IMG/VR virus record: IMGVR_UViG_2711768004_000003
From: a virus
Taxonomy: Duplodnaviria; Heunggongvirae; Uroviricota; Caudoviricetes
DNA: 9,858 bases
Direction: 5' to 3' (one strand)
The notes below the pieces were generated by a model. That model did no database searches, had not been told where the DNA came from, and saw only the letters and a list, made by a program, of their open reading frames with translations. This document shows, piece after piece, positions 7,009-7,282 of this stretch. Positions within the stretch are counted from its first letter, which is position 1, and every line of letters starts with the position of its first letter. Position numbers and translations under genes: made by a program.

Positions 7009-7037
7009 AATGTAAACTGCAAACCTGAAACTGTCAA
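7009..7037 (-). promoter_or_regulatory. Candidate sigma70 promoter for the moron gene
   Basis: On the minus strand: consensus -35 TTGACA (plus 7032-7037), 17-nt spacer, -10 TACATT (plus 7009-7014). The -35 sits in the loop of an inverted repeat AACCTGA/TCAGGTT. It would give a leader of about 200 nt. Confidence 0.5.
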
Positions 7038-7162
7038 CACCGTCAGGTTCCAATCATCGGGTGGTGAGACGCACAGGGTTGGAACTACCGGGAAACCGAC
7101 CGGCGAGCTTTTCAGCTCCCCCATGCGCCCCACCATAATTCAGATGTGCGCGTGCATACGAC

Positions 7163-7187
7163 AATAAAAAACACGCTCGCGGCGTGT
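7163..7187 (-). terminator. Candidate tR'-like terminator of a short late leader RNA
   Basis: Minus strand reads ACACGC-CGCGA-GCGTGT then TTTTTTATT: 6-bp stem (plus 7171-7176 with 7182-7187), 5-nt loop, U-tract. About 80 nt downstream of the candidate pR'. Confidence 0.5.
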
Positions 7188-7248
7188 GTCTGTCGCGGTC
7201 TCTATCCGGGGTTCCAATCCCGACGCCAGATTTTGCTGGCGCGTGAGG

Positions 7249-7278
7249 AATATAGCCCCGGACAATGTGTCTGGTCAA
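7249..7278 (-). promoter_or_regulatory. Candidate late promoter pR' (with qut) immediately downstream of Q
   Basis: On the minus strand: -35 TTGACC (plus 7273-7278), 18-nt spacer, -10 TATATT (plus 7249-7254), starting 5 nt after the Q stop. This is the canonical pR' position in lambdoid phages. Confidence 0.5.
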
Positions 7279-7282
7279 GCAC

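Follow-up and report, generated by a model that had tools for sequence, protein, structure and literature searches.

A probable antirepressor control cassette of the P1 immI (c4) and Gifsy-1 IsrK type downstream of the Q gene in a lambdoid prophage

We analysed positions 7,009 to 7,282 of IMG/VR record IMGVR_UViG_2711768004_000003. The whole stretch (the window) is 9,858 nucleotides (nt) of DNA from a member of the Caudoviricetes. Its recognisable genes are all on the minus strand. The region lies directly after the gene for the Q antiterminator and is the first part of a 474-nt gap between Q and a gene for an ORF6N-domain protein. The gap holds two RNA modules. One is built on an IsrK-like RNA and a C4-type antisense RNA, and the other is built on an RNA of the sRNA-Xcc1 family. 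Coordinates are collected in Table 1.

Promoter, terminator and RNA elements after the Q gene

A promoter-like site, here called P_isrK, begins five bases past the Q stop. Transcription from its start to the end of the intrinsic terminator gives a 77-nt RNA. A first-pass annotation, made from the letters alone, had proposed a promoter right after Q, a terminator about 80 nt downstream and a short terminated transcript. All of these are present. It had also described a 10-mer, GGTTCCAATC, that occurs twice in direct orientation and whose core, GTTCCAA, occurs once inverted. The three copies are where it placed them. The promoter of a "moron" gene that it set beside one copy corresponds to the second promoter-like site. 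Chance was estimated from 5,000 dinucleotide-preserving shuffles of 7009-7282. Any exact 10-mer direct repeat occurred in 148 of them. A 10-mer repeat together with its inverted 7-mer core occurred in nine (p ~0.002).

The window was scanned with Rfam. All four family matches were on the minus strand and scored above the curated gathering scores (GA). The C4 RNA has a minimum free energy (MFE) structure of -44.9 kcal/mol. The loop of its second hairpin presents b', a' lies in the 3' junction, which is single-stranded, and the structure matches the Rfam consensus. The minimum-energy folds leave exactly the a and b segments exposed. The a1:a' pairing is exact at 7/7 positions, and a':a2 also pairs at 7/7. 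The three motif copies are a1, a' and a2, and the motif is functional as an RNA-RNA recognition sequence. Duplexes predicted with RNAduplex for the whole C4 against IsrK or the downstream region were long and reflected the closing stems, not loop contacts. They were not used.

The C4 part has the covariance score and the fold of a C4 system, with a1/b1 upstream, a2 downstream and an antirepressor-type gene beyond. The IsrK part matches its model. It has its own promoter and a Rho-independent terminator, and it stands between Q and a homolog of anrP. The reference for this arrangement is the Gifsy-1 locus antQ-isrK-orf45(STnc1160)-anrP-isrJ (Hershko-Shalev et al., 2016; PMC4825925). Homology of the window to Gifsy-1 begins exactly at the -35 hexamer of P_isrK and includes the mapped IsrK start. 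Position 1 of the Rfam IsrK model equals Gifsy-1 +1, as anchored by orf45 A107/A119 and by G28/G31. This places the start in the window at 7242.

The b2 target is missing. No b2 site was found downstream of a2 in 7056..6924, nor in the other tandem loci examined. It is present in P1, Gifsy-1, the loci L010 and L003, and most relatives. The distance from C4 to the start of the regulated gene is 51-55 nt in P1, Gifsy-1, L010 and the other examined relatives, with b2 on the ribosome site of that gene. The ORF6N gene of the window starts 249 nt past C4, behind the second module, and the roughly 230 nt in between carry the Xcc1 module. The IsrK-C4 module of the window is thus a truncated member of the C4 system.

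Two further observations concern the same RNAs. The loop of the first IsrK hairpin, GCAAAAUC (7229-7236, minus strand), is conserved across the family and lies outside the a/b pairing. Its P1 counterpart is GCAAAUUC (L009 18236-18243). The loop may serve as an Hfq site or a processing signal, or it may act as a -10-like pause. An open reading frame (ORF) of 76 codons at 7136..6906 (minus strand), with its AUG inside C4, has the position of Gifsy-1 orf45. Its length is not conserved: with the window included the range is 14 to 76 codons, and the counterparts elsewhere have 14-45. It is therefore not counted as a gene and probably does not encode a conserved protein.

Table 1. Features of the window. 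Coordinates of minus-strand features run from high to low. Sequences of RNA elements are given 5' to 3'.
Feature	Coordinates	Strand	Evidence or detail
P_isrK promoter, TTGACC-18-TATATT	7278..7249	minus	consensus scan, 10/12 matches; -35 TTGACC 7278..7273; -10 TATATT 7254..7249; start ~7242
c4-a1b1	7255..7203	minus	Rfam RF03163, 50.1 bits (GA 46.7)
IsrK-like RNA, 77 nt, three hairpins	7242..7166	minus	Rfam RF01394, 77.5 bits (GA 50); MFE fold
a1 target UUGGAAC, loop of IsrK hairpin 2	7217..7211	minus	motif copy 7210-7219
b1 target GAGACCG, in IsrK	7202..7196	minus
Intrinsic terminator	stem 7187..7171, U-run to 7166	minus	terminator scan
C4-type antisense RNA, long closing stem and two hairpins	7140..7057	minus	Rfam RF01695, 71.0 bits (GA 45)
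b' recognition element CGGUUUC, loop of C4 hairpin 2	7098..7092	minus
a' recognition element GUUCCAA, C4 3' junction	7085..7079	minus	inverted motif copy
a2 target UUGGAAC, a few nt past the C4 3' end	7053..7047	minus	motif copy 7046-7055
10-mer GGTTCCAATC, plus-strand reading	7046-7055 and 7210-7219		exact direct copies
Core GTTCCAA, reverse complement	7079-7085		inverted copy
Second promoter-like site (module 2), TTGACA-17-TACATT	7037..7009	minus	consensus scan, 10/12; start ~7002
Module-2 short decoy RNA	7002..6946	minus
a1* CUCAAAA, in hairpin GGUG-CUCAAAA-CACC	6997..6991	minus
b1* UCGAAAG	6986..6980	minus
Module-2 terminator-like hairpin CCACA/UGUGG and U7	6973..6946	minus
sRNA-Xcc1-family RNA	6923..6840	minus	Rfam RF02221, 77.4 bits (GA 53)
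b'* CUUUCGA, Xcc1 hairpin-2 loop	6873..6867	minus
a'* UUUUGAG, Xcc1 3' junction	6863..6857	minus
a2* CUCAAAA	6842..6836	minus
b2* UCGAAAG	6818..6812	minus	overlaps ORF6N Shine-Dalgarno AAAGGA
ORF6N-domain gene, 189 amino acids, cassette cargo	6808..6239	minus	Pfam PF10543, E 9e-21
PR' homolog and leader, outside the cassette	6221..6135	minus	alignments A1, A3
PR' homolog hexamers, 16-nt spacer	TTTACG 6221..6216; TATCCT 6199..6194	minus	start ~6187
PR' leader hairpin	6163..6142, U-run to 6135	minus
Q antiterminator gene, 135 amino acids, outside the cassette	7690..7283	minus	Pfam PF06530, E 2.7e-52
RusA gene	8030..7659	minus
DnaB-like helicase gene	9816..8284	minus
Four tRNA genes (Met-CAT, Arg-TCT, Thr-TGT, Gly-TCC)	6049..5739	minus	ARAGORN

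The window Q is about 80% identical to the 144-amino-acid Q of Stx phages. The ORF6N protein is 49% identical to Gifsy-1 AnrP (E 6e-58) and is predicted to be an antirepressor-like homolog of it. The tRNA genes stand between the PR' leader and the lysis genes, where Stx phages have ileZ-argN-argO. Beyond them follow holin, lysozyme, Rz, terminase and portal genes, in that order and on the minus strand. A masked run of 351 N lies at 5325-5675, upstream of the holin gene. A listed ORF at 5143..5694 crosses this run and is therefore partly an artefact.

Covariation of the pairing sites and the sRNA-Xcc1 module

Scanning viral contigs with two patterns yielded 166 modules (107 unique), and the offsets of a' complements were scored. 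The first, stricter C4 pattern gave only P1-like phages with a single a' type. The relaxed pattern was used for covariation. An exact reverse complement of a' occurred both upstream and downstream in 161 of the 166 modules, at fixed offsets. The upstream copy lies about 82-87 nt before C4, and the downstream copy lies about 20 nt past the conserved CAACCCTG of C4. The modules contain five a' specificities, each matched at both a1 and a2. They contain more than 25 b' variants, each matched by its own b1 and by a b2 adjoining the start codon. Among 35 representative modules that were aligned, a1:a' was paired in 95.5% of cells and a':a2 in 98.8%, and 4/7 pairs had changes on both sides. Slid controls were 18-46% paired.

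The window was also aligned with two E. coli prophages and Gifsy-1. UUGGAAC/GUUCCAA/UUGGAAC and UUGGCGU/ACGCCAA/UUGGCGU switch jointly in this alignment, and b1/b'/b2 likewise switch together. The first-pass annotation had suggested that the motif is a protein-binding or pause element tied to the downstream "moron" gene. A regulatory role and the tie to that gene are retained. The protein-binding or pause site is not, since the motif covaries as an RNA pairing triad. The three places of the motif recur in related modules with their complementarity kept, and its letters are not conserved.

The cassette was found at several places in other phages. PhiR12_1 and phiSTEC1589 have it in the nin region. 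Stx2a_F765, an Stx2 phage, has it near the left end. P1 has it although that phage is without Q. An antirepressor gene follows in each of these. When loci of ORF6N homologs were scanned with Rfam, IsrK and C4 lay directly upstream in 18 of 20 and C4 alone in the other 2. The cassette travels with antirepressor genes, not with Q. We read the region as the regulatory section of a mobile cassette for an antirepressor, of the P1 immI (c4) and Gifsy-1 IsrK type, inserted between Q and the late promoter. We put the probability of this reading at roughly 0.88.

The second module repeats the design of the first. Its a* and b* sites match exactly three ways, both in the window and in relatives whose b* sequences differ. 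In E. coli EC12, the b* positions read UCAGUAG/CUACUGA/UCAGUAG. In phiSTEC1589, a Rha gene is preceded by an Xcc1 module of its own, which reads AUACAAG/CUUGUAU/AUACAAG and CUGAACA/UGUUCA. In the window, b2* ends 4 nt before the ORF6N ATG at 6808. Translation of ORF6N is most likely gated by Xcc1.

A covariance model was built for Xcc1 and was searched on pattern hits from one genome per species. It found 51 copies, from Pasteurellaceae, Neisseria, Desulfovibrio, Xanthomonas, Luteimonas, Erwinia, Edwardsiella, Azospirillum and others. Of the 48 copies with enough flank, 34 showed exact three-way matching over 7 nt or more (shuffled-flank p <=0.015 per locus). When the match was limited to the Xcc1 b' window (positions 40-61), 32 loci kept it, with 30 distinct b'* sequences among them. 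In 23 of 27 other Xcc1 loci, the distance from the end of b2* to the start codon is 8-12 nt. Most genes downstream are of antirepressor types, namely Bro-N (9), Rha (6), P22 Ant (3), ORF6N (2) and KilA-N (1), and one encodes the SymE toxin. The decoy and target layout of the window module recurs in diverse species, and promoter-like hexamers were seen by eye upstream of the first hairpin in Xcc1 modules elsewhere.

In the searchable papers, Xcc1 is treated as a trans-acting, virulence-associated small RNA with unknown or host targets and as an integron small RNA of Xanthomonas. Its position upstream of ORF6N or symE has been noted without a mechanism. Rfam does not put sRNA-Xcc1 in the C4 clan. 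A C4-type reading of Xcc1 was not found in the searchable literature, a scope outside which Chen et al. (2011) on sRNA-Xcc1 falls. The chances are about even that Xcc1 is a second widespread C4-type family. Such a family would have a cis decoy, a2*/b2* targets and a hypervariable, immunity-like loop. It would mostly gate antirepressors and occasionally SymE. Its tandem with IsrK-C4 here would give two-tier control of one antirepressor. An island of Xylella fastidiosa is annotated with five Xcc1 copies in tandem, spaced by about 385 nt, and for another strain the annotation gives an adjacent Xcc1-isrK-C4 cluster (table in PMC12189769). These clusters suggest that tandem antisense modules are common beyond enterobacterial phages.

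Late promoter and rival readings

Sy et al. (2020; PMC7547250) mapped PR' in the Stx phages of strain Sakai, with a start 258 nt upstream of the 3' end of tR'. RNase E cleaves at GU/AUU at +173, and the PR' leaders of Stx phages are short Hfq-binding RNAs (PMC7547250). The Sakai coordinates of that study are those of NC_002695.1, unlike version.2, and PR' was placed by internal distances instead. In Sakai Sp15, the +173 distance and the 258 nt, counted to the second terminator, fit only one promoter. This is TTTACG-16-TATCAT, which lies where Q ends and has its start at the A of AAGAGTGG. A PR' inside Q, which results when the published coordinates are taken at face value, was rejected as an artefact of the version mismatch.

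The window has a homolog of this PR' and its leader between the ORF6N gene and the tRNA genes (Table 1). That region holds the conserved block AAGAGTGGTTAC. Homologs of window 6221..6096 occur in 360 phage records, against 404 records with this Q type, and the organism counts match. In phages without the insert, the homolog stands directly after Q. Its place after the ORF6N gene in the window therefore indicates that the cassette was inserted between Q and PR'. In Gifsy-1, the cassette likewise lies between Q and the position after anrP, which is held by isrJ. Judged by homology, the late promoter of the window is the 6221..6194 region, about 1 kb beyond the 7278..7249 site.

The isrJ gene of Gifsy-1 (L001 2373-2447) directly follows anrP. 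In the window, the PR' leader, a StxS homolog, has this relative place. IsrJ may therefore be the leader RNA that is made from the late promoter of Gifsy-1 and terminated. The Rfam isrJ model had no match in the window, where the PR' leader is of the Stx type and not of the Gifsy type.

The first-pass annotation had offered a different identity for the unit after Q. The promoter would be pR', the terminator at 7187..7166 would be tR', Q would read through it, and the GGTTCCAATC copies would be protein-binding or pause elements. The placement right after the Q stop and the short terminated transcript do resemble the lambdoid layout, and the PR' leaders of Stx phages too are short Hfq-binding RNAs. 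We nevertheless consider this very improbable. In 7282..7160, neither homology to a mapped PR' nor linkage to Q across genomes was found. For this Q family, the mapped PR' has its homolog after the ORF6N gene, and this homolog co-occurs with the Q type in phage records. The promoter and terminator of the unit are those of IsrK, which scores 77.5 bits here against a threshold of 50. The proposed coupling to Q fails as well, because the promoter, terminator and motif occur without an adjacent Q in nin regions, at the Stx2 phage end and in P1. The motif letters change in all three places with complementarity kept, which also speaks against fixed protein-binding or pause elements. The same annotation had raised a tRNA T-arm remnant, for example of an old integration site. 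The plus-strand GGTTCCAATCC resembles the T-loop consensus GGTTCGAATCC, and four tRNA genes lie 1 kb away. Those genes are on the minus strand, however, and the resemblance is on the plus strand. Within 7009-7282, no tRNA match came from ARAGORN or from Rfam, the latter even at E<=10. Covariation of the variable bases with their partners is also unexpected of a T-arm remnant. This origin is scarcely credible.

A further question is whether the IsrK-C4 module still works in the window, and several findings weigh against the cassette reading given above. The covariation is strong; it is not unlimited, with only about five independent a' specificities and few evolutionary events. The b1:b' pairing in the window has 7 bp, and one of them is G.U. 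With b2 missing, the first module may be non-functional there. The terminator scan did not call the terminator of the second module, which has a long loop. The Gifsy-1 authors explain activation via the upstream ORF orf45 (PMC4825925), and the length of its 76-codon equivalent in the window is not conserved among relatives. Tandem IsrK-C4-Xcc1 arrangements were found in five examined loci (L176, L011, L220, L223 and L224), of which at least four differ in sequence. These loci are mosaics, and the a2 of L220 and of L224 has lost its match to a'. This suggests that selection does not act on the a2 past C4 in tandem loci. The a2 sites there (L220 947-1000 and L224 943-1000) are of another specificity than a1/a', and a recombination breakpoint between C4 and a2 is therefore indicated.

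IsrK-C4 could be a decaying relic of the recombination that brought Xcc1. Its a2 and C4 would have no present function, and only the second module would regulate ORF6N. Both b2 and the ribosome site are gone past C4, and a2 is mismatched in two tandem loci. The loss is recent by comparison with phiSTEC1589. This closest relative is 97.5% identical over 7228 to 7028 and keeps b2 (AGAAACCAC) before its antirepressor. Other findings make the relic unlikely, though a good deal less so than the two readings above. IsrK and C4 of the window still score like those of intact modules. Their promoter, terminator, and a1:a' and b1:b' complementarity are intact. In the tandem loci b1 and b' stay complementary although their sequences differ. 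At the tandem locus of EC12 they read UCGAAAC/GUUUCGA, and this speaks for continued selection on the pairing of IsrK with C4. The tandem arrangement also recurs. The pair may be partly orphaned, as a relic. It may instead act on the read-through transcript, or in trans on matching prophages. We lean towards partial function, as an upper tier of control or as trans-acting immunity, over the relic.

Proposed mechanism and known systems

The cassette would work as follows. A sigma-70 promoter just after the Q stop would start transcription near 7242. Most transcripts would end at the intrinsic terminator and give the 77-nt IsrK-like RNA, with a1 in a hairpin loop and b1 just after it. Read-through transcripts would hold the C4-type RNA, which would expose a' GUUCCAA and b' CGGUUUC. 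C4 would pair with a2/b2 on the downstream mRNA and block the antirepressor ribosome-binding site. The short IsrK RNA, with its a1/b1, would compete for C4 and relieve the block. In the window, the b2/ribosome-site half of the C4 target has been replaced by a complete second module of the same design. That module has its own promoter, a short decoy RNA, the Xcc1 antisense RNA, and a2*/b2* over the ORF6N Shine-Dalgarno sequence. The present analysis shows the elements with their folds, complementarity and covariation, as well as homology to the mapped start of IsrK. We infer the processing of the antisense RNA, the translational repression and the decoy action from P1 and Gifsy-1.

If this is correct, a feature that resembles the lambdoid late-gene switch is an RNA-based lock on an antirepressor. 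This bears on how the sequence next to Q is annotated in Stx-type and Gifsy-type prophages, among which the cassette is common. Whether a prophage is induced without DNA damage, and whether one prophage wakes another, depends on antirepressor locks. The a and b specificity letters would therefore define phage cross-talk. The reading of Xcc1, if true, would explain why Xcc1 occurs in prophages, integron cassettes and islands beside antirepressor or toxin genes. Target searches, now aimed at host or plant mRNAs, would be redirected as well.

The C4 RNA of phage P1 is cut from a longer transcript and represses translation in vivo. The immI c4 antisense RNA of P1 and P7, with sites a1/b1 and a2/b2 and with icd-ant, was reportedly described by Citron and Schuster in 1990. 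The P1 record annotates immI with promoter P1c4, a1 TTGACAG and b1 GTTAGTGC (NC_005856). Its C4 RNA is 77 nt; a hairpin loop carries b' CACTAAC, and the 3' junction carries a' CTGTCAA. The a2 site TTGACAG is directly past C4, and b2 GTTAGTGA is on the icd ribosome-binding site, followed by ant (NC_005856). Like the window, immI contains a promoter, a1, b1, a terminator-like hairpin, C4, a2 and an antirepressor gene, in the same order and spacing. The C4 folds are alike, and a1/a'/a2 occupy the same 7-nt positions with three compensatory differences. Unlike immI, the window cassette is in a lambdoid prophage and adjoins Q. Its upstream part closes with a strong terminator and forms a discrete IsrK RNA. 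It is without icd, its b2/ribosome-site target is replaced by the second module, and its cargo is ORF6N, not Ant1/2.

In Gifsy-1, both the short terminated IsrK and a translationally silent read-through mRNA arise from the isrK promoter (PMC4825925). IsrK supplied in trans raises anrP translation more than 100-fold. The compensatory mutants G28A/C162U and G31A/C159U restore the inactive structure, and both the processing of STnc1160 from a longer transcript and translational repression by it have been suggested. Hfq binding by IsrK and trans-activation of antirepressor translation have been shown only for Gifsy-1 (all PMC4825925). By the Gifsy-1 start numbering, G28 and G31 are inside a1 and C159 and C162 are inside a'. 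The published helix is therefore the a1:a' pairing. As in the window, the Gifsy-1 cassette is directly after the Q gene, with an IsrK of 79.3 bits (77.5 here), a C4-like RNA downstream and AnrP-type cargo. The specificity is UUGGCGU there and UUGGAAC here, and the Q proteins have 225 and 135 amino acids. In Gifsy-1, anrP begins 55 nt past C4 with b2 at its ribosome site, whereas the Xcc1 module lies between in the window.

Three further systems share part of this design. The CI RNA of satellite phage P4 is a processed antisense RNA between complementary seqA and seqC on the same transcript, as in the window. It was cited as a structural homolog by the IsrK authors (PMC4825925). Unlike the window RNAs, it causes transcription termination of replication genes, and the likeness is drawn without a sequence or model match. 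The lambdoid PR'-tR' leader (lambda 6S; StxS) has a constitutive promoter by Q and a short terminated RNA, as at 7278..7166. Its homolog in the window is a separate sequence, and P_isrK has no homology to PR'. Unlike PR', the P_isrK unit is not linked to Q across genomes. sRNA-Xcc1 has been described as trans-acting and here behaves as a C4-type antisense RNA with flanking cis targets. This kind of system has been known since P1 c4 and Gifsy-1 IsrK, and the present locus is a truncated-and-fused member of it.

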